In this document: in pieces, positions 15,950-25,116 of the stretch
Layout of the letters: the number at the start of each line of letters is the position of its first letter
How positions within the stretch are numbered: the stretch's first letter is position 1
Source of the DNA: an uncultured Gemmatimonadaceae bacterium
GTDB lineage: Bacteria; Gemmatimonadota; Gemmatimonadetes; Gemmatimonadales; Gemmatimonadaceae
Length of the DNA stretch: 64,000 nt
Direction: 5' to 3'
Assembly: GCA_963761305.1 (NCBI GenBank)
Contig: CAVXGK010000001.1
Coordinates: forward strand, 960,001 to 1,024,000
Notes under the pieces: generated by a model
Told to the model about the DNA's origin: nothing
Databases searched by the model: none
The model's input: only the letters and a program-made list of their open reading frames with translations
Translations under genes and position numbers: made by a program

Positions 15950-17719
15950 TCACGACGCCGCGCGAACGTCCACCCGCTCGGGCACGCCGAGACCGATGCG
16001 ACCCGAGGAATCAGCACCCACTGTGTGGACGTAGAAATACGTCGCGCCATCCTCCGATGACGGCATCACCGCCGAAGGCGCGGAGAGAATCAGCACGTCG
16101 CCGCACTGGCCCATCCAATCGATGTGGCGATGACCGTGCATGACCACGGCGCGAGTGCCGACCCGCTGCAAGCGACGCGCGAACCAGTTCCCGTTGATCA
16201 GCGTCGTCCCGATGCGCTCGGCGATCGAATGGCCGAGCTTGGGATGCTCGACGATGTGATGGTGCAAGGCGACGATCCAGCACGCGCGCGGGAACGCGCG
16301 CATCGCGACGTCGAGCGCGTGAGCTTCTTCGGCCGCCACGAGCCCGAGCGCGTTCGTGAACGAGAAATGGGTCTCGGCGTTGGAATTCAGCACGATGACG
16401 CCGAGCCCGTCGTCGCGTGCAGGCGGCCGCACCATCGGAAACGCGGCGGACCACGCCTCGCCGCTCACCTTGCCGAGCCGGCGGGAACCGCTGTCCGCGA
16501 AACCCGCGATGTCCTCTGCCTGTGGTGCGAGCGCACGGTCGAGCGACTCGCCCATGCGGCCTTCTTTCTCGTCGACGACACGAACTCGCGTTCCCTGTAG
16601 CGCCGCCAGCGCCGACAGCGTGCGCACCTCGCGGAGACGCTTCTTCGGACTCGTCGGCAGATCGAGACGCGCCGGATTCGCGCGATCGATGATGTTCACG
16701 TCGTGATTCCCCGGCAGCGCGACGACGAGTGGTTCCAGACGCGGAAAACCGGCGAACACGTCGAGCAGCTCGCTCCACTCGGCGGACGTGCCGGCGTCGG
16801 TGAGGTCTCCGGTGATGACGACGGCGTCGAGCGGGTCGCGGCGATGGATCGCGTCGAGTCGTTCGAGCGCGACGATGAGCGCGTCGTTGCCGCGCGTCCC
16901 GGCGCGTCCGCTGCCGAGTCGAAACCCGTAGCGTTCGCCGACGACGTGAATGTCCGAGAGATGCGCGACGCGCCACGAACGCACGAAGTCGCCGGGCGGA
17001 TGAAAGGCGACGAGCTCTCGCGGCTGGGGCATCGTCGCGTCGGCCATTCCCCACACCAGCGCGGCGATCGCGAGATACGCCGTCGCGACCGCCGTCGCGT
17101 TCGCGAGCGCGGTGAGGAAAAGCCAATGCGGCGTTCGAAAATCGGAAAGCGAGCCGACCCAGTGCGTCGCCGGCCAGACCAGACGCAGCACGACCAGCGC
17201 GAGCGCACAGATGATCACGCCGGAGACCGCCGACGCCGCGGCGCGTCCGCGCATGCGCGTCGTCTCGCTCGCGGCGGCACCCGTCAGACGACTCGACAAA
17301 TGGAGGAGGAGCTCACGCCACGCCACGTAGCCGGGCTGTATCGCCATCGCGTTCAGCGACCAGAAGCTGCGCTCGACGACGCGGAACAGCGATCGGCCGC
17401 CGAACCAGGCCAGCGCGAGGAGCGCGACGAGGAAGAGCAACGCGCCCGCTCCGGTCGCTCCCGGCGTCGTCGCGAGCTTGCGGGCCCAGATCGTCGCGAT
17501 GATCGGCGCGAGGCCCAGCAGCACAGCCGGCACGACGATCAACATCACCAGCGCGACGGCCATCTTCGGAAGGCTGACTTCGGCGAGCAGATTGCCCGCG
17601 ATCGCGAGGAGCGAGCGCCGCTCCGGGCTCGACTCGTCGGTCTCGACATCGCCGCCGCGCGGGTCGACGAGCGGGGGCCGGCGACGGTCGAGTGTTCTCA
17701 CGCGCGCCGCGCTCGACAT
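15950..17719 (-). CDS. membrane-anchored calcineurin-like metallophosphoesterase
   Basis: About four N-terminal TM segments, then SDIH, GDLTD, PGNHD, LHHH, HGHRH; start uncertain. Confidence 0.85.
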   Translation of the reverse strand: MSSAARVRTLDRRRPPLVDPRGGDVETDESSPERRSLLAIAGNLLAEVSLPKMAVALVMLIVVPAVLLGLAPIIATIWARKLATTPGATGAGALLFLVALLALAWFGGRSLFRVVERSFWSLNAMAIQPGYVAWRELLLHLSSRLTGAAASETTRMRGRAAASAVSGVIICALALVVLRLVWPATHWVGSLSDFRTPHWLFLTALANATAVATAYLAIAALVWGMADATMPQPRELVAFHPPGDFVRSWRVAHLSDIHVVGERYGFRLGSGRAGTRGNDALIVALERLDAIHRRDPLDAVVITGDLTDAGTSAEWSELLDVFAGFPRLEPLVVALPGNHDVNIIDRANPARLDLPTSPKKRLREVRTLSALAALQGTRVRVVDEKEGRMGESLDRALAPQAEDIAGFADSGSRRLGKVSGEAWSAAFPMVRPPARDDGLGVIVLNSNAETHFSFTNALGLVAAEEAHALDVAMRAFPRACWIVALHHHIVEHPKLGHSIAERIGTTLINGNWFARRLQRVGTRAVVMHGHRHIDWMGQCGDVLILSAPSAVMPSSEDGATYFYVHTVGADSSGRIGLGVPERVDVRAAS

Positions 17720-17819
17720 GCGCACGAGGGGTCGCAAGATATGTGCGTCCTGTGCGCTCGTTCGGCCTTGTCGCGGCGACGCCTCCAATAGTAGGGTTTC
17801 TCCTCGACTATTTTCCGCC

Positions 17820-19208
17820 ATGCGAGCGGAATCAGCCGTCCCGGTCCCCTCCCCGCAGATTCTCGTCGCCGACGATCAGGCGGACGTGCTCGAAGCGTTG
17901 CGCCTGTTGCTCAAGGGGCACGGCTACGACGTTCACACCGTCAACTCGCCGAGCGCCGCGCTCGCCGCACTCGAGCGCCGCGACTTCGACGCGATGCTGC
18001 TCGACATGAACTACGCGCGCGATACGACGTCGGGCAAAGAAGGGCTCGACCTGCTCGCCTCGCTCCAGACGCTCGAGCCCAACATGCCGGTCGTCGTCAT
18101 GACCGCGTGGGGGAGCATCGACAACGCGGTCGAAGCGATGCGCCGCGGCGCGCGCGACTACGTCGAGAAGCCGTGGGACAACGCCCGACTCGTCTCGATG
18201 CTCGGCGTGCAGGTGGAGCTCGGCCGCGCGCTGCGGCGGGCGCAGCGGCTCGAGTCGGAGAATCGCCTGCTGCGGCGCGACCATCTGCCGCAGATGATCG
18301 CCGAATCGCCGAAGATGAAGCCGATCGTGCAGCTCATGGAGCGCATCGGTCCGTCGGATGCGAACGTGCTGATCACGGGCGAACACGGCACGGGCAAGGA
18401 GCTCGTGGCGCAGTGGCTGCACGCGGCATCGGCCCGCGCCGCGCGGTCGTTCATCGCCGTGAACCTGGGCGGGCTGTCGGAGGGCGTATTCGAGAGCGAA
18501 CTGTTCGGCCACGTGCGCGGCGCGTTCACCGACGCGAAGACCGACCGCGTCGGCCGGTTCGAGCTGGCCGACGGCGGCACGATCTTCCTCGACGAGATCG
18601 GCACCGTGCCGCTCGGGCTTCAGTCGAAGTTGCTCCGCATGCTGCAGACGGGCGACGTCGAGCGCGTCGGGTCCTCGAAGGCGCGGCACGTCGACGCGCG
18701 TGTCATCTCGGCGACGAACGCGAACCTCCAGCAGGAGGTCGCTGAAGGGCGGTTCCGCGAAGACCTGCTGTTCCGGCTCAACACGATCGAGGTCAGCCTG
18801 CCGCCGCTGCGCGACCGCCGTGAGGACATTCCGGCGCTGGCCGCGCACTTCCTCCGCCGCCACGCGACGCGGTATCACAAGGCGCTTGGCGGATTCGACG
18901 CGGGCGGCATGCAGGCGCTCCTCTCGCACGGGTGGCCCGGCAACATCCGCGAGCTGGACCACGCGGTGGAGCGCGCCGTGCTCATGGCGCCAGGCGACCA
19001 GGTGCGCGCGTCGGACCTCGGCCTGCGCCCCGCGGGCGGGGGCGGGGGGCCGGCGCCGCGGCTGGACGAGCTGCCGCTCGAAGACGTCGAGAAAATGCTC
19101 ATTCAGAAAGCGCTATCGCGATACGACGGCAACGTCAGTCGCGCCGCCCAAGCCCTCGGCCTGTCGCGGAGCGCGCTCTACCGGCGCATCGCGTCGCATG
19201 GCCTCTAG
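17820..19208 (+). CDS. sigma54-dependent NtrC-family response regulator (REC-AAA-Fis HTH)
   Basis: VADD, LLDMN, GEHGTGKE, ESELFGH, GAFTDA, FLDEI, FREDL, WPGNIREL, AAQALGLSRSALYRR. Confidence 0.96.
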   Translation: MRAESAVPVPSPQILVADDQADVLEALRLLLKGHGYDVHTVNSPSAALAALERRDFDAMLLDMNYARDTTSGKEGLDLLASLQTLEPNMPVVVMTAWGSIDNAVEAMRRGARDYVEKPWDNARLVSMLGVQVELGRALRRAQRLESENRLLRRDHLPQMIAESPKMKPIVQLMERIGPSDANVLITGEHGTGKELVAQWLHAASARAARSFIAVNLGGLSEGVFESELFGHVRGAFTDAKTDRVGRFELADGGTIFLDEIGTVPLGLQSKLLRMLQTGDVERVGSSKARHVDARVISATNANLQQEVAEGRFREDLLFRLNTIEVSLPPLRDRREDIPALAAHFLRRHATRYHKALGGFDAGGMQALLSHGWPGNIRELDHAVERAVLMAPGDQVRASDLGLRPAGGGGGPAPRLDELPLEDVEKMLIQKALSRYDGNVSRAAQALGLSRSALYRRIASHGL

Positions 19209-20598
19209 GCGCCGCACGCCGCCGGCGGGGAGCACCACGCCAGCCACGCGGCCGTCGTCCGACCAGCCGCCCCGCGAGCCGCATCACGAGCGCCTGATCT
19301 TCCGCCTCGCGCTCCTCGCCGGCTTTCCGGGCGTGGCGGTCTCGATGGTCCTGTTGTGGCGCGGCGAGTTCAGCCCGAGCGTGCGCTGGACCCTCGGCCT
19401 CGTCGTCGTCGGCACGTGGCTCGCCTTGGCGGTCGTGTTGCGCGAGCGAGTCGTGCGGCCGCTGCAAACGCTCTCCAACATGCTGGCCGCGCTGCGCGAG
19501 GGCGACTACTCGATCCGTGCCCGCGGCGCCGACCGCGACGACGCGTTGGGCCTGGCGTTCATGGAATCGAACCTCCTCGGCGAGACGCTGCGCGCGCAGC
19601 GGCTCGGCGCGATGGAGGCGACGGCGCTGCTGCGCACCGTCATGGCGGAGATCGACGTCGCCGTGTTCGCGTTCGACGACGCCGAGCGCTTGCGTCTCGT
19701 GAATCGCGCCGGCGAGCGGCTGCTCGCGCAACCGGCCGAGCGGTTGCTGGGGCGGACCTCGGAGCAGGTCGTACTCATCGACGTGCTCGAAGGAGCGTCG
19801 CCGCGCACGATGGACGTCACGTTCGCCGGCGGATCGGGGCGATGGGAAGTGCGGCGCGGATCGTTCCGACAGGACGGGCGACCACACACGCTGCTCGTGC
19901 TCTCCGACGTGAGCCGCACCCTGCGCGAAGAAGAGCTGCAAGCGTGGCAGCGCATCGTTCGCGTGCTGAGCCACGAGATCAACAACTCCCTCGCGCCGAT
20001 CCGCTCGATCACGGACACGCTGCTGTCGCTCCTCGACCGGCCGACGCGCACCGAAGACGCCGACGAAGATCTGCGGCGTGGACTCACCGTCATCGGCGGG
20101 CGCTCCGAAGGGCTCGTGCGATTCATGTCGGCGTACGCGCGTCTCGCCAAGCTTCCGGCGCCGAACAAGGCGCCGCTCGACGTCGGCGCATGGATCCGGC
20201 GAGTCGCGTCGCTCGAGACGCGGGTGCCGATCCGAGTCGTCGCCGGACCCGCCGCCACGCTCGAGGCGGACGGAGACCAGCTCGACCAGCTCCTGATCAA
20301 TCTCGTTCGCAACGCGGCCGACGCCTCGCTCGAGACCCATGGCGACGTGCGGATCCGCTGGTCGCGTCGCAACGGCACCCTCTCGCTGATGGTCGAGGAT
20401 GAAGGTCCGGGGCTGGCCAGCGCCTCAAACCTGTTCGTTCCGTTCTTTACGACCAAGCCGCAGGGTTCGGGCATTGGCCTGGTGCTGTCGCGGCAGATCG
20501 CCGAGGCGCATGGCGGGTCGCTCTCGTTGGCGAACCGGACCGACCGGCGCGGATGCATCGCGACGGTGCGGTTCGAGCTCGGTCCGCCAGCCGTCTGA
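19198..20598 (+). CDS. sensor histidine kinase (2TM-HAMP-PAS-HisKA-HATPase)
   Basis: LSHEINNSL H-box, NLVRNA, DEGPG, FVPFFTTK, GSGIGL; overlaps the regulator stop. Confidence 0.95.
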   Translation: MASRRRTPPAGSTTPATRPSSDQPPREPHHERLIFRLALLAGFPGVAVSMVLLWRGEFSPSVRWTLGLVVVGTWLALAVVLRERVVRPLQTLSNMLAALREGDYSIRARGADRDDALGLAFMESNLLGETLRAQRLGAMEATALLRTVMAEIDVAVFAFDDAERLRLVNRAGERLLAQPAERLLGRTSEQVVLIDVLEGASPRTMDVTFAGGSGRWEVRRGSFRQDGRPHTLLVLSDVSRTLREEELQAWQRIVRVLSHEINNSLAPIRSITDTLLSLLDRPTRTEDADEDLRRGLTVIGGRSEGLVRFMSAYARLAKLPAPNKAPLDVGAWIRRVASLETRVPIRVVAGPAATLEADGDQLDQLLINLVRNAADASLETHGDVRIRWSRRNGTLSLMVEDEGPGLASASNLFVPFFTTKPQGSGIGLVLSRQIAEAHGGSLSLANRTDRRGCIATVRFELGPPAV

Positions 20599-20644: not shown

Positions 20645-20660
20645 CGGCATGACCTATGCT
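20645..20660 (+). promoter_or_regulatory. sigma54 -24/-12 promoter candidate for barrel gene 1
   Basis: CGG-CATGACCTAT-GCT (GG-N10-GC). Confidence 0.6.
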
Positions 20661-20670
20661 TGAGTACGTT

Positions 20671-20773
20671 GTCGTGCCGCGACGGAGAACCGTCGATCGG
20701 AGCGACGCGAGAGCGACGTTCCGCCCAGCTATCGTCCGCGGGGGCCTGTGAGGACGGATCAGGGGAGCGAGCC
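20671..20773 (+). ncRNA. candidate structured 5' leader, copy 1
   Basis: Three stems shared with the leaders at ~21805-21922 and ~22997-23118. Confidence 0.5.
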
Positions 20774-21628
20774 ATGGATCGACGACAGATCACCACATTG
20801 TTGGCCGCCGCCGCGGCGCTGAGCGCGCTCGGGACGACCATCCTAGCCGCGCAGGACACAACGAGAACCGGTCCGCGATCGACACGGACAATCCCAATAA
20901 GGAAGGAGGCGGCGGGCGAGATCGCGAAGCCGATTCACGACACCGTGACGGTGTACCGCACGGACACACTTCGCCTCACGACGCCACCCGTCACGGTTCA
21001 CGACACGGTGACGCGAACCAACACGGTTACGGTCACTCACACGGACACCGTCACACTCACGCCCGTCGCGCCGCCGGTTCGGCTGCCGAACGGTATGTAC
21101 ATGGGCCTGAGCGCCGGCCTGAGCGCGCCGAACGGCGCGTTGTTCAACCCGAACAACACCGGGCCGAGCGCGCAGTTTCAGCTCGGTTGGCAGGACGCGC
21201 TGAAGGTGTTGGGCCTGCGTGGCGACGTGAACTGGACCTCGCCGGGCCAGGATGCCGGCTTCGTTCATTTCCCCAGCTCGCCCCACGGACAGATCTTCAA
21301 CTTCAGCCTGGACGCCAAGGCGCAGCTCCCGTATCTGCACCACACGTTCGGCGCGAGCCACCTGTTCTCGCTGTACGCGATCGGCGGCTACACACACACG
21401 ATGTTCAAGAACGTCGGCCTGCGCGTCGATTCACCGCCGGGTACGCTGCTCTTCGCGCCCGCCAATGATTCGTGGTCGAATCAGAACGGTTGGAACGCCG
21501 GCGGCGGCGCGTCGCTGATGTGGGGCCGGACGGAACTGTTCGCCGAGTCTCGCGTGCTCGCGTTCACGCCGGATAACGCGCCGATGGCTCGGCAGATGCC
21601 CTTCATGCTCGGGCTGAACTGGTACTAA
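20774..21628 (+). CDS. outer-membrane beta-barrel protein, paralog 1
   Basis: Signal peptide (LAA-QDT), DTV-rich N-terminal segment, alternating beta-strand pattern, GWNAGGG, C-terminal aromatic NWY. Confidence 0.8.
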   Translation: MDRRQITTLLAAAAALSALGTTILAAQDTTRTGPRSTRTIPIRKEAAGEIAKPIHDTVTVYRTDTLRLTTPPVTVHDTVTRTNTVTVTHTDTVTLTPVAPPVRLPNGMYMGLSAGLSAPNGALFNPNNTGPSAQFQLGWQDALKVLGLRGDVNWTSPGQDAGFVHFPSSPHGQIFNFSLDAKAQLPYLHHTFGASHLFSLYAIGGYTHTMFKNVGLRVDSPPGTLLFAPANDSWSNQNGWNAGGGASLMWGRTELFAESRVLAFTPDNAPMARQMPFMLGLNWY

Positions 21629-21680
21629 CCGCCGAATCGATTCGGGACGACGAGACCGTCGTCCCGCCGCGCGGACGAGA

Positions 21681-21720
21681 GGACAGCGACCAGTTCGTTC
21701 GGGTCGCTGTCCTTTTTTTT
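21681..21720 (+). terminator. rho-independent terminator
   Basis: GGACAGCGACC/GGTCGCTGTCC 11-bp stem followed by T8. Confidence 0.9.
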
Positions 21721-21778
21721 GTCGACATGCTTCCGTCTGCTCGAGGCGATTTCGAGAACCTTTACGATTCGGGTATCT

Positions 21779-21794
21779 CGGCACGGCCCCTGCC
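21779..21794 (+). promoter_or_regulatory. sigma54 -24/-12 promoter candidate for barrel gene 2
   Basis: CGG-CACGGCCCCT-GCC (GG-N10-GC with the GGCACG core). Confidence 0.65.
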
Positions 21795-21804
21795 CTGGAC
21801 TGCG

Positions 21805-21922
21805 GCGGTGCCGCGACGATTTCAGTCGCCCGGAATGTTGACGAGCACTCTCGCTCGAGCACGTTCCGCCCGGGAGCCGTCCCCGTGGGGCGAGTCGAGG
21901 ACGGTGGAGAGGAGGAGACACA
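21805..21922 (+). ncRNA. candidate structured 5' leader, copy 2
   Basis: Stems GCGAC/GTCGC, CGGAATGT/ACGTTCCG, CCGTCC/GGACGG just upstream of the AGGAGG RBS. Confidence 0.55.
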
Positions 21923-22888
21923 ATGTTGAAGGGTCATGCGTTCGTCCTCGCTGCCGGCGCGGCGTTAATTGCGCTCGACGCGTCGGCGTCTCTAGCGCAG
22001 GACACAACTCGCGCTCGTCCGCATTCGACGAAGCGCATCTCGGTGAAGAAGGAAAGCGGCGAAGTCGCGCCGATGCCGAGAGTCGACACGGTGACGATTT
22101 TCCGCACCGACACGATGTCCATCACGCGTATCGATACCGTGACGCAAACGAACACGGTCGTACGCACGGATACGTTGGTGCAGACGATCACCCGGCCGAT
22201 TCCCGCGTCCGGTAACTGGTACGGCGGGTTTGCTGCCGGCGTGGCGGTGCCGGCCGGCGGTCTGCAGAACTTGAACGAAACCGGTGGTACAGGCCAGTTG
22301 CAGTTCGGTTATCAGCCCGTGCACAGCATTTTGGGAGGGCGCATCGACGCCTCGTACTCGCGCTTCCGCCGACCGTTCGGTTTCGCGGATGACAACTTCG
22401 CGGTTGCGACGCCGTTGCTCGGCTTCACGAACGTCTTCACCCGCCAGCCTGACATCTGGAACTTCAACCTCAACCTGAAGGTCCAGGTCCCGGGAGTCGA
22501 AGGCTGGTTCGGTCATGCAGTCACCTTCCAGCCATACCTGATCGGCGGCGGCGGTTTCGCAACCTACGATCACCTGCCGGTCGAGTTCAGCGACGGATCG
22601 TTCCTCATCGTCCGCAATGGATTCGTGCAAACGACGAACGGCATCATCGTCAACGGCCTGAGCGTGGACAATTTCGACACCGGTTGGCACACGAGTTGGG
22701 GTTGGAACGCCGGCGGCGGTTTGGCGTGGCGCTTCGGACACCAGGAGCTGTTCGTGGAGTCACGCGTGCTCGGGTTCAACACGAGCCGCAACGACTTCTT
22801 CAACAACACGAACATCAACGGCATCGACTTGCCCAGCTTCCGGTCGGCACGTCAGGTCCCGATCGTCTTCGGCATGAACTGGTATTAA
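21923..22888 (+). CDS. outer-membrane beta-barrel protein, paralog 2
   Basis: Signal peptide (SLA-QDT), DT[VML] repeats, beta-strands, C-terminal GMNWY; strong RBS. Confidence 0.85.
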   Translation: MLKGHAFVLAAGAALIALDASASLAQDTTRARPHSTKRISVKKESGEVAPMPRVDTVTIFRTDTMSITRIDTVTQTNTVVRTDTLVQTITRPIPASGNWYGGFAAGVAVPAGGLQNLNETGGTGQLQFGYQPVHSILGGRIDASYSRFRRPFGFADDNFAVATPLLGFTNVFTRQPDIWNFNLNLKVQVPGVEGWFGHAVTFQPYLIGGGGFATYDHLPVEFSDGSFLIVRNGFVQTTNGIIVNGLSVDNFDTGWHTSWGWNAGGGLAWRFGHQELFVESRVLGFNTSRNDFFNNTNINGIDLPSFRSARQVPIVFGMNWY

Positions 22889-22926
22889 TGGATCAGGCAG
22901 TAGTAGTCAGTTAGGACAGAACGGTC

Positions 22927-22973
22927 GCGGCAGGCTGGGCGCTTCGGATGGTTCCGGCGCATCAACCTGCCGC
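22927..22973 (+). terminator. stem-loop after barrel gene 2 (no clear U-tract)
   Basis: GCGGCAGG.../...CCTGCCGC; homologous to 24118-24169. Confidence 0.5.
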
Positions 22974-22996
22974 GTCGCTGCCCCTGCCCTGGACTG

Positions 22997-23118
22997 CGAC
23001 GGTGCCGCGACGATTTTGAGTCGCTCGGAATGTGTAGACGAGCACGATCGCTTGAGCACGTTTCGCCCGGAGGCCGTCCGCGGGGGCGAGTTGAGGACGG
23101 TGGAGAGGAGGAGACACA
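22997..23118 (+). ncRNA. candidate structured 5' leader, copy 3
   Basis: Same three stems; substitutions keep pairing as G-U. Confidence 0.55.
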
Positions 23119-24060
23119 ATGTTGAAGGGTCATGCGTTCGTCCTCGCTGCCGGCGCGGCGTTCATTGCGCTCGACGCATCGGCGTCTCTAGCGCAGGACA
23201 CAACTCACGCTCGTCCGCATTCGACGAAGCGCATCTCGGTGAAGAAGGAAAGCGGCGAAGTCGCGCCGATGCCGAGAGTCGACACGGTGACGATTTTCCG
23301 CACCGACACGATGTCCATCACGCGCGTCGACACCGTGACGCAGACGAACACGGTCGTACGCACCGATACGCTGGTGCAGACGATCACCCGGCCGATTCCC
23401 GTGGTCGGCAACTTCTACGGCGGATTCGCCGCCGGCGTCACCGTTCCGTCCGGAGGGCTCGATGTACTGAACGAGACCGGCGGCACGGGCCAGTTGCAGT
23501 TCGGCTGGCAACCCGTCCACAGCATCCTTGGCGCGCGCCTCGACGGGTCGTACTCGCGGTATCGCCGGGCATTCGGCTTCGACGACAACTTTGCCGTCGC
23601 CACGCCGTTGCTCAACTTCACGAACGTCGACACCCGCGAACCGAACATCTGGAACTTCAATCTCGATCTGAAAGTCCAGATCCCGGGTATCGAGAGCGCG
23701 TTCGGTCATGCGGTCACGTTCCAGCCGTACCTCCTGGGCGGCGGCGGGTTCGTCACCTATGATCACCTGCCCCTTCAGACGCGCGACGGGGCGTTCATCG
23801 TAGCTCGCAATGGAATCCTCCAGACGTCGAACGGCGTGATTCTCACCGGCGTCACGGTGGACAATTTCGACACCGGTTGGCACACGGATTGGGGTTGGAA
23901 CGCTGGTGGCGGACTCGCTTGGCGCTTCGCGAACAAGGAGCTCTTTGTCGAGTCGCGCGTGCTCGGCTTCAATGCCCATTCCATCAACAACGTCTTCCCG
24001 AACGTCAGCTTCCGTTCGGCGCGCCAGGTTCCGATCGTCTTCGGTATGAACTTCTATTAA
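23119..24060 (+). CDS. outer-membrane beta-barrel protein, paralog 3
   Basis: N-terminal ~93 aa almost identical to paralog 2; C-terminal GMNFY. Confidence 0.85.
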   Translation: MLKGHAFVLAAGAAFIALDASASLAQDTTHARPHSTKRISVKKESGEVAPMPRVDTVTIFRTDTMSITRVDTVTQTNTVVRTDTLVQTITRPIPVVGNFYGGFAAGVTVPSGGLDVLNETGGTGQLQFGWQPVHSILGARLDGSYSRYRRAFGFDDNFAVATPLLNFTNVDTREPNIWNFNLDLKVQIPGIESAFGHAVTFQPYLLGGGGFVTYDHLPLQTRDGAFIVARNGILQTSNGVILTGVTVDNFDTGWHTDWGWNAGGGLAWRFANKELFVESRVLGFNAHSINNVFPNVSFRSARQVPIVFGMNFY

Positions 24061-24117
24061 TCGATCGCGCGATGAGCGCGAGGTACCGCTAGACCGTGGT
24101 TCGCAGGCACAAATTTC

Positions 24118-24170
24118 GCGGCAGGCTGGGCTGTTCGGTGAAGCACCGACGCATCAGCCTGCCGCGTTTT
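24118..24170 (+). terminator. probable rho-independent terminator
   Basis: GCGGCAGGCTG/CAGCCTGCCGC stem followed by GTTTT. Confidence 0.65.
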
Positions 24171-24276
24171 GCGCTTCAGCGTACGTTACTCATGGAACGG
24201 ATTTGGCATTTTGAACGGTTACCATAGATCGAGCGCTGCGTTTCCCGCGCTGAATTACCGCCGACATCCCACATCC

Positions 24277-25116
24277 ATGAGTAGGATATTGAAGTCTCGA
24301 TGGATCGCCACGCTTCCGGCGGCGATCCTTTTTGTCATTTCGTCTCAAGCCCACGCACAAGGCCGGCATCCACGCTCGGAAGCCGCCAAACGCCTGTGGC
24401 ACCCATCCAAGGACTCGACCGCCGCAATCGACGACTCCGACGACGTCGCGCTTCACTTCGATTCCCGCGCCGACAGCCTGTCGTGGCTGCGCGGCCGCGA
24501 CCTCGCCCATAAATCGTCAGGCCTTCGTCTCGTCGTCTCGCTCCAGGAGCGCCACCTCTGGGCGATCGCCGGACACGACACGCTGCTGAGCGCACCGGTT
24601 GCCGTGGCCAAAGGAACGACCCTCGAGTATGGAAGCCAGAGCTGGCATTTCACTACGCCGCGCGGCGTCCGCACCGTACTCGAGAAAAGCGCCGACCCCG
24701 TCTGGCAGCCGCCCGAGTGGCTCTATGCCGAAACCGCGGTCGAGAACGATCTCAAACTCGCGCATCTGAACTACGGCCAGCGCATCCATCTCTCCGACGG
24801 ACGGCTTCTCACCATCGTCGACGGGTCCGCCGGCATCATCGACACCGACGGCTCGTTCGGCGAGCTGCCGACCGACGAACACATCGTCTTCGGCAACACG
24901 CTCTACATGCCGCCGATGGGCTCGAAGAACCGCAAAGTCGAGGGCGAGCTCGGCAAGTACAAGCTCAGCCTCGGTGACGGGTACCTGTTGCACGGCACGC
25001 CCGACAAGCAATCGATCGGCATGGCGGCAACGCACGGCTGTATCCGCCTGCGCGACGAAGACATCGAGTGGCTGTACGACAACGTCCCGGTTGGGACGAA
25101 GGTGTACATCTTCTGA
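24277..25116 (+). CDS. L,D-transpeptidase (YkuD/ErfK family)
   Basis: VVSLQER, APVAVA, TPRG, YLLHGT...ATHGCIRL, VPVGTKVYI; signal peptide. Confidence 0.92.
   Translation: MSRILKSRWIATLPAAILFVISSQAHAQGRHPRSEAAKRLWHPSKDSTAAIDDSDDVALHFDSRADSLSWLRGRDLAHKSSGLRLVVSLQERHLWAIAGHDTLLSAPVAVAKGTTLEYGSQSWHFTTPRGVRTVLEKSADPVWQPPEWLYAETAVENDLKLAHLNYGQRIHLSDGRLLTIVDGSAGIIDTDGSFGELPTDEHIVFGNTLYMPPMGSKNRKVEGELGKYKLSLGDGYLLHGTPDKQSIGMAATHGCIRLRDEDIEWLYDNVPVGTKVYIF

Follow-up and report, generated by a model that had tools for sequence, protein, structure and literature searches.

Three clustered barrel genes of the window (the whole 64,000-nt stretch of Gemmatimonadaceae DNA analysed here) are each preceded by a leader that, judging from sequence comparison, is apparently a real structured RNA motif, so far undescribed, for which a double pseudoknot is predicted. 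The position of this motif, its conservation, its association with one gene family and the covariation of its stems P2 and P3 at the helix level are established by comparison of loci; from there we infer the functional steps. It is a new motif with good support, from a family of bacteria that has received little study. Its compact fold is predicted to combine a double pseudoknot and a four-way junction, and its size (~90 nt) allows direct transcription and testing. The original prediction of an undescribed cis-regulatory RNA or mRNA-stabilising leader stands, since neither the Rfam search, nor the covariation analysis, nor the position of the predicted transcription start speaks against it; the function itself is predicted.

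Three leaders share a start sequence and three stems

Leader copy 1 (20671–20773, forward strand, as for the boxes, leaders and barrel genes below and the hairpins starting at 21681, 22925 and 24117; 69.7 bits with model R1) lies behind a sigma54-type -24/-12 box (GG-N10-GC, 20645–20659; predicted +1 at ~20671) and ahead of barrel gene 1 (20774–21628, 284 aa). It comprises the 5' strand of K1 (20676–20678), P1 (20680–20695), P2 (20698–20723), the 5' strand of K2 (20724–20727; CCCA, 3 bp only) and P3 (20732–20737/20752–20757), whose loop carries the partner strands for K2 (20739–20742) and K1 (20743–20745). A G+C-rich hairpin directly follows the stop codon of gene 1 (21629–21680), ahead of a terminator-like hairpin with a U-run (21681–21720, fold -22.7 kcal/mol) that a simple scan missed. 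Similar CGAC/GTCG hairpins also follow the stop in loci L004, L139 and L157.

Copy 2 (21805–21922, R1 82.3 bits) has its own sigma54-type box (21779–21793, predicted +1 at ~21805). Its elements are the 5' GCC (21810–21812), P1 (21814–21828), P2 (21831–21868), the junction (21869–21873) and P3 (21876–21882/21899–21905, loop 21883–21891); the pairing predicted for K2 is G-U or bulged. Barrel gene 2 (21923–22888, 321 aa) is followed by a hairpin (22925–22975; repeats D13 and D14) that is a copy of the one behind gene 3, without its U-run. Copy 3 (22999–23118, R1 87.8 bits) lacks a -24 box of its own and contains GCC (23004–23006), P1 (23008–23023), P2 (23026–23065), the junction (23066–23070) and P3 (23073–23079/23095–23101, loop 23080–23087). 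It precedes barrel gene 3 (23119–24060, 313 aa), a tandem duplicate of gene 2 that is followed by a terminator-like hairpin with a short U-run (24117–24170).

The shared start sequence and the stems P1 to P3 listed in the original prediction are all present: GTGCCGCGACG is common to the three leaders, starting at 20674, 21808 and 23002. Copy 1 indeed stands ahead of a much more diverged paralog: identity is 30–34% between gene 1 and either of the others, and 80% between genes 2 and 3. Genome-wide, these three copies are the only ones (nhmmer E 5e-19 to 7e-33; next match E 0.76). Taken singly, the leaders show no excess of stability over shuffled sequences (z -0.47, +1.07 and -0.51), so that the evidence for the motif is comparative.

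A sigma54-type box precedes the stems at a fixed distance

GG-N10-GC is the consensus of sigma54 promoters, and rpoN is present in the genome. Such a box lies ahead of 139 of 146 leaders; among the other seven are three false pattern picks. The distance from box to P1 is 21–22 nt in 127 of these 139 leaders (background 18/3000), which places the predicted start upstream of the stems and P1 at +10 or +11. This agrees with the proposal that conservation begins about where a sigma54 transcript would start, and not with a start downstream of the stems. A leader general to sigma54 transcripts is ruled out, because P1 follows only 2 of the 27 such boxes in the genome.

In copy 3 the -12 half is kept and the -24 half is replaced by the U-less hairpin; by its sequence, this copy arose via tandem duplication with a breakpoint in the promoter (22925–22998). 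As it has no -24 box of its own, its leader is probably internal to a transcript. The same type of junction is also found in L002, L003 and L009. A diverged leader on the reverse strand of L014 (1183–1273), devoid of promoter box, keeps the whole motif, and the motif may therefore work inside a transcript.

P2 and P3 covary at the level of the helix

A set of 122 distinct leaders, of which hardly any had served to train the first model, was aligned with a fit to the structure; 95.4% of its cells pair, a value that none of 500 shuffles matches and that falls to 24–69% in slid controls. Ten of the 18 pairs change on both sides. We then set the data against a tree-aware null, on 105 rows remaining once 5'-truncated rows and one weak row were dropped. 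The pairing observed was reached by 0/500 simulations for P2, 10/500 for P3 and 47/500 for P1, and double changes on the same branch number 17 against 6.1 expected in P2 and 5 against 1.1 in P3. On these alignments P2 and P3 covary beyond the tree-aware null at helix level. The per-pair G-test with a tree-based null (105 rows, 3789 pairs) gives no pair below E 1; five of its 12 top pairs are proposed ones, the best at E ~5. The covariation that the original prediction called for is therefore found for P2 and P3 as helices and for no single pair.

Disparities appear between the stems. The length of P2 is 18–82 nt in the 105-row set, where it folds as a hairpin (median z -2.9), and 0 to ~190 nt across all loci. 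Inserts in P2 of well over 100 nt occur in L137, L239, L267 and L261 and might hold a structure of their own. P1 is almost invariant, with an A-U to G-C change in two loci of one genus; its C-G, G-C and C-G pairs are fixed in 43/43 cases across genera and its spacer varies. The fixed sequence of P1, of K2 and of the top of P3 suggests tertiary or protein contacts. None of the unpaired positions of the leader is invariant. A coding extension was rejected: leaders use all three frames and contain stops in 54 of 146 cases.

Two pseudoknots are predicted in a shifted register

The GCCC that follows P2 had been proposed to pair with GGGC in the P3 loop. The window allows such a pairing; the conserved register is a different one, in which two pseudoknots are predicted. 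In other genera, CCCG/CGGG pairs in 61 of 63 cells as compared with 52 of 63 for GCCC/GGGC (within the genus the columns are too invariant for such counts to separate the registers). The G of GCCC is there the closing base of P2, and is replaced by U-A in three loci; belonging to P2, it leads us to reject the GCCC/GGGC register.

K2 is thus predicted, from the aligned sequences, between the junction CCCG and the CGGG of the P3 loop. It changes from C-G to U-A in L259, to G-U in L023 and by a matched deletion in L200. The CCCG/CGGG register frees a GGC for pairing with the 5' GCC, the predicted K1. In K1, C-G changes to U-A in L258, and both strands are lost together in L238 and L241, which have no P2. 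The U-A swaps in L259 and L258 are the one clean compensatory change of each knot. In other genera 36 of 48 cells of K1 pair, and L159/L167 break it; it is less well supported than K2 by the alignment. In the model of the fold, K2 and P3 would together make an H-type pseudoknot whose first and second loops are short, and K1 would close a four-way junction K1-P1-P2-K2.

The motif accompanies one family of barrel genes

Within the genus, the motif and the barrel gene are each present in 28 of the 30 other genomes, and both are missing from the same two. Scanning 185,579 species genomes for the pattern returned 45 stretches, 31 of them at 77 bits or more and the other 14 at 35 bits or less. The high-scoring stretches are labelled Gemmatimonad (29), "bacterium" (one) and Vicinamibacterales (one); the low-scoring ones, in other phyla, were dismissed on their score. 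The Vicinamibacterales label belongs to a 7-kb contig (L048) on which leader, box and gene all occur (88 bits), a case of misbinning or transfer. A metagenome scan added 79 further loci. A tally of 93/201 takes in two unpublished genomes, of which every other claim is independent.

The motif was also seen in other genera, upstream of distant homologues. With a second model (E<1e-3) it was found in 15 of 150 other genomes of the family, covering ten genera besides that of the window; eight of these 15 genomes had served to train this model. The matches new to it (L251, L254, L258–L261, L267 and L269) all lie ahead of the same barrel gene family. Outside the family, 150 genomes sampled from the class and 150 from the phylum gave weak matches only. 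Weak matches were inspected in L105–L114 and L262, and rejected as lacking the motif or the gene; this inspection left out L115–L123 and L273. Wherever it was found, the motif precedes a gene of the OmpA/NspA-like barrel family.

Close paralogues in L131–L136 and L017 have the same promoter box and no motif, hence the motif is dispensable for expression. Reductions to P1 only occur in L224, L225, L227, L228, L237 and L240, L238 and L241 combine P1 with an H-type pseudoknot without P2 or K1, and L221 has P1 with a remodelled 3' half. Reduced forms retain a hairpin at the P1 position, which is the simplest conserved remnant. Natural variants of this kind, lacking P2, lacking K1 or reduced to P1, map the modules of the motif.

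Barrel proteins and neighbouring genes

A Pfam search of the barrel proteins gave no match. For the product of gene 1, a signal peptide, a Thr/Val-rich stalk of low confidence and an eight-stranded OmpA/NspA-like barrel are predicted (AlphaFold, mean pLDDT 65.7, 24-sequence alignment); with Foldseek the barrel model is closest to NspA (E 3e-7), followed by OmpA, Ail and OmpX. Homologues that carry a name are mostly labelled Gemmatimonadaceae. A YkuD L,D-transpeptidase gene (24169–25116) follows the barrel cluster, and one is also present in 22 of 25 barrel loci of distant genera (L222–L246). L,D-transpeptidases tether barrel N-termini to peptidoglycan; by analogy, the Thr/Val-rich stalk could be such a tether. 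Directly upstream of the cluster lies a sigma54 activator and histidine kinase pair (17478–20598), whose kinase adjoins most loci of the genus; this pair may drive the sigma54-type promoters.

Contig ends and ribonucleases

To look at 5' ends we collected 48 contigs, of a library type that is not given, with an end at most 1500 nt upstream of the gene match. Of these, 27 begin over 10 nt ahead of P1, none within the 10 nt directly before it, 16 in the leader and five in the gene. Several terminate in terminator hairpins and so look transcript-derived. The first C of P1 is the exact start of six of the 16 leader-internal contigs (~6e-7 under a uniform model, n=15), and nine of the 16 also span a second leader, which is intact. 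Small shares of the RNA runs X1 and X2, consisting of contigs only and uninformative on 5' ends, show no end pile-up. Libraries commonly lose ~10 nt from the 5' ends of cDNA. The boundary at P1 is probably such a loss and possibly a processing site; we take it to support a start upstream of the stems and to be a weak lead for processing.

RNase E/G is present, and an RNase J model exceeds its cut-off in none of the 31 genomes of the genus, on which ground trimming by RNase J was rejected. RNase E and RppH require single-stranded 5' ends, two or three unpaired nt being sufficient for RppH of B. subtilis (excerpts of PMC3997798).

Function of the leader

The reading we tentatively favour, somewhat more doubtful than probable, is that the leader is an mRNA stabiliser whose predicted double pseudoknot would tie up the 5' end. 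The knot would leave little single-stranded 5' RNA for the entry of pyrophosphohydrolase or RNase E, and would end ~16–26 nt ahead of the ATG, so that the Shine-Dalgarno (SD) sequence would stay free. The leader would then act like the ompA 5' UTR, but through a tertiary fold. We prefer it because the leaders hold no terminator, no conserved anti-SD switch, no invariant unpaired base and no coding sequence, because P1 is the remnant kept by reduced forms, and in view of the RNase E/RppH requirement and the ompA precedent. Several points go against a stabiliser. In the modelled fold ~5 nt at the predicted 5' end are unpaired; the fixed P1, K2 and top of P3 exceed the needs of a passive stabiliser; motif-less paralogues share the box, and K1 is broken in L159/L167; copy 3 and one L014 copy keep the motif without a promoter box.

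The excess of fixed pairs (P1 43/43 across genera) would be accounted for if the leader were the site of an RNA-binding protein controlling translation or decay of barrel mRNAs, an explanation that we hold to be unlikely. It agrees with an H-type pseudoknot beside the SD and with one gene family everywhere, and it has precedents in the rpsO/S15 and T4 gene 32 pseudoknot operators, which bind the RNA-binding product of their own gene (excerpts of PMC3985624 and PMC535899); however, the neighbourhood encodes no candidate for such a protein, the genes that follow the leaders code for membrane barrels, the knot does not extend to the SD and no alternative fold is conserved. Another rival is an orphan riboswitch: barrel expression would be tuned through a metabolite or ion bound by the knotted core. 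The 5' UTR position, a conserved core of several pseudoknots beside a P2 that varies freely and the single gene family would suit it. Yet leaders contain neither an invariant unpaired nucleotide nor a terminator; no conserved anti-SD partner was found, with none above 0.3 in 87 of 149 leaders (pseudoknot-free folding); blocking the K1/K2 strands leaves SD opening unaffected (0.57 vs 0.58; of 149 leaders, 51 open better and 49 worse); and the distribution is narrow. A riboswitch appears distinctly improbable.

The contig boundary raises the idea of a self-cleaving or processing element, cut between a purine and the first C of P1 and giving a stable, hairpin-capped mRNA, probably with a 5'-OH; we see a slim chance for it. 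Besides the six of 16 contigs starting at that C and the empty 10 nt before it, a glmS-like strand order, the lack of RNase J for trimming and a G+C-rich cut site, unlike usual RNase E sites, speak for cleavage. The unstated library type, the common loss at cDNA ends, the second leader crossed intact by nine of 16 contigs and the lack of an invariant unpaired base for catalysis speak against it, as does a site 3' of K1 whereas glmS cuts 5' of P2.2. We give the same slim chance to the full version, a new class of small self-cleaving or self-processing RNA of glmS-like double-pseudoknot topology that would remove its own first 10 nt and leave a hairpin-capped mRNA resistant to RNase E. Least of all do we believe in a DNA element (a palindromic operator downstream of the promoter) or a mere residue of duplication, already largely refuted by the covariation in the alignments. 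The inverted repeat that P1 makes at +10 hardly varies and single copies are not unusually stable, as such an element would have it; but the P1 spacer varies, changes in P2 and P3 are G-U-tolerant and compensatory, P2 ranges from 0 to ~190 nt, and the non-coding leader has been retained in genera with proteins that match only at E 1e-20 to 1e-40.

If true, a pseudoknotted bacterial 5' stabiliser or a ribozyme class of this kind would be new to RNA biology and a useful expression part; a self-cleaving leader would be a natural ribozyme insulator that raises rather than lowers expression.

Comparison with known RNAs

The original prediction had recognised no known riboswitch, and Rfam 15 agrees: no match on the window leaders (best E 2.6) and, on 8 loci of the genus and 10 distant ones, nothing that overlaps a leader at a meaningful score. 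A sub-threshold sX6 match (L012:2234–2407; 34.6 bits, gathering 40) between two barrel genes is probably a terminator. In the literature outside subscription journals, as far as it is open to search, we found no description of a Gemmatimonad RNA motif, riboswitch or covariation, and four consensus strings led to one unrelated paper only. The main text of preprint 10.64898/2026.10.21.760802 names neither the taxon nor the barrels; the motif could be among its 1.5 million clusters.

The cores of HDV, twister, pistol and hammerhead ribozymes were compared by eye and rejected. HDV ribozymes have the nested order P1/P2/P3/P1.1/P4; the ~15 nt inside the last stem of the leader are, by eye, too few for P3-L3-P1-P4. 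HDV-like P1 starts with G+1 (excerpt of PMC8495972). An exoribonuclease-resistant RNA was discarded, as no host 5'-3' exoribonuclease was found for it to block (RNase J model over cut-off in 0/31 genus genomes).

The core of glmS is a P2.2-P1-P2.1-P2 double pseudoknot (residue numbering in an excerpt of PMC7125110). Within what that excerpt covers, its strand order is that of the predicted K1/K2/P3: a 5' strand, a hairpin, a junction strand and a closing stem whose loop pairs with both. Unlike glmS, the leader has an extra hairpin (P2), a loop of 0–1 nt that leaves no room for the GlcN6P cofactor pocket and no invariant unpaired G, and its candidate 5' end flanks the 5' strand on the opposite side. 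Membership fails on sequence, loop size, gene context (barrel genes downstream, not glmS) and Rfam, and the leader is therefore not glmS.

The rpsO and T4 gene 32 operators likewise have an H-type pseudoknot near the SD; the gene behind the present leader makes a membrane barrel, and no binder of the leader is known. Orphan riboswitch candidates known through comparative genomics share a conserved 5' UTR motif, a variable stem and one gene family; the leader differs from them in having no Rfam 15 match, no expression platform found and a restriction to one bacterial family among the searched genomes.

The ompA 5' UTR uses simple stem-loops. In E. coli it is likewise structured, with a 5'-proximal hairpin, on the mRNA of an eight-stranded barrel in an RNase E organism, and is a known mRNA stabiliser (excerpt of PMC7509114). 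Examined for an ompA-type 5' end, the leader has P1 at +10/+11 of the predicted start, a K1 that would pair +6 to +8, and contigs ending at P1. What sets it apart from ompA is its two predicted pseudoknots, its sigma54-type promoter and its strong sequence conservation.
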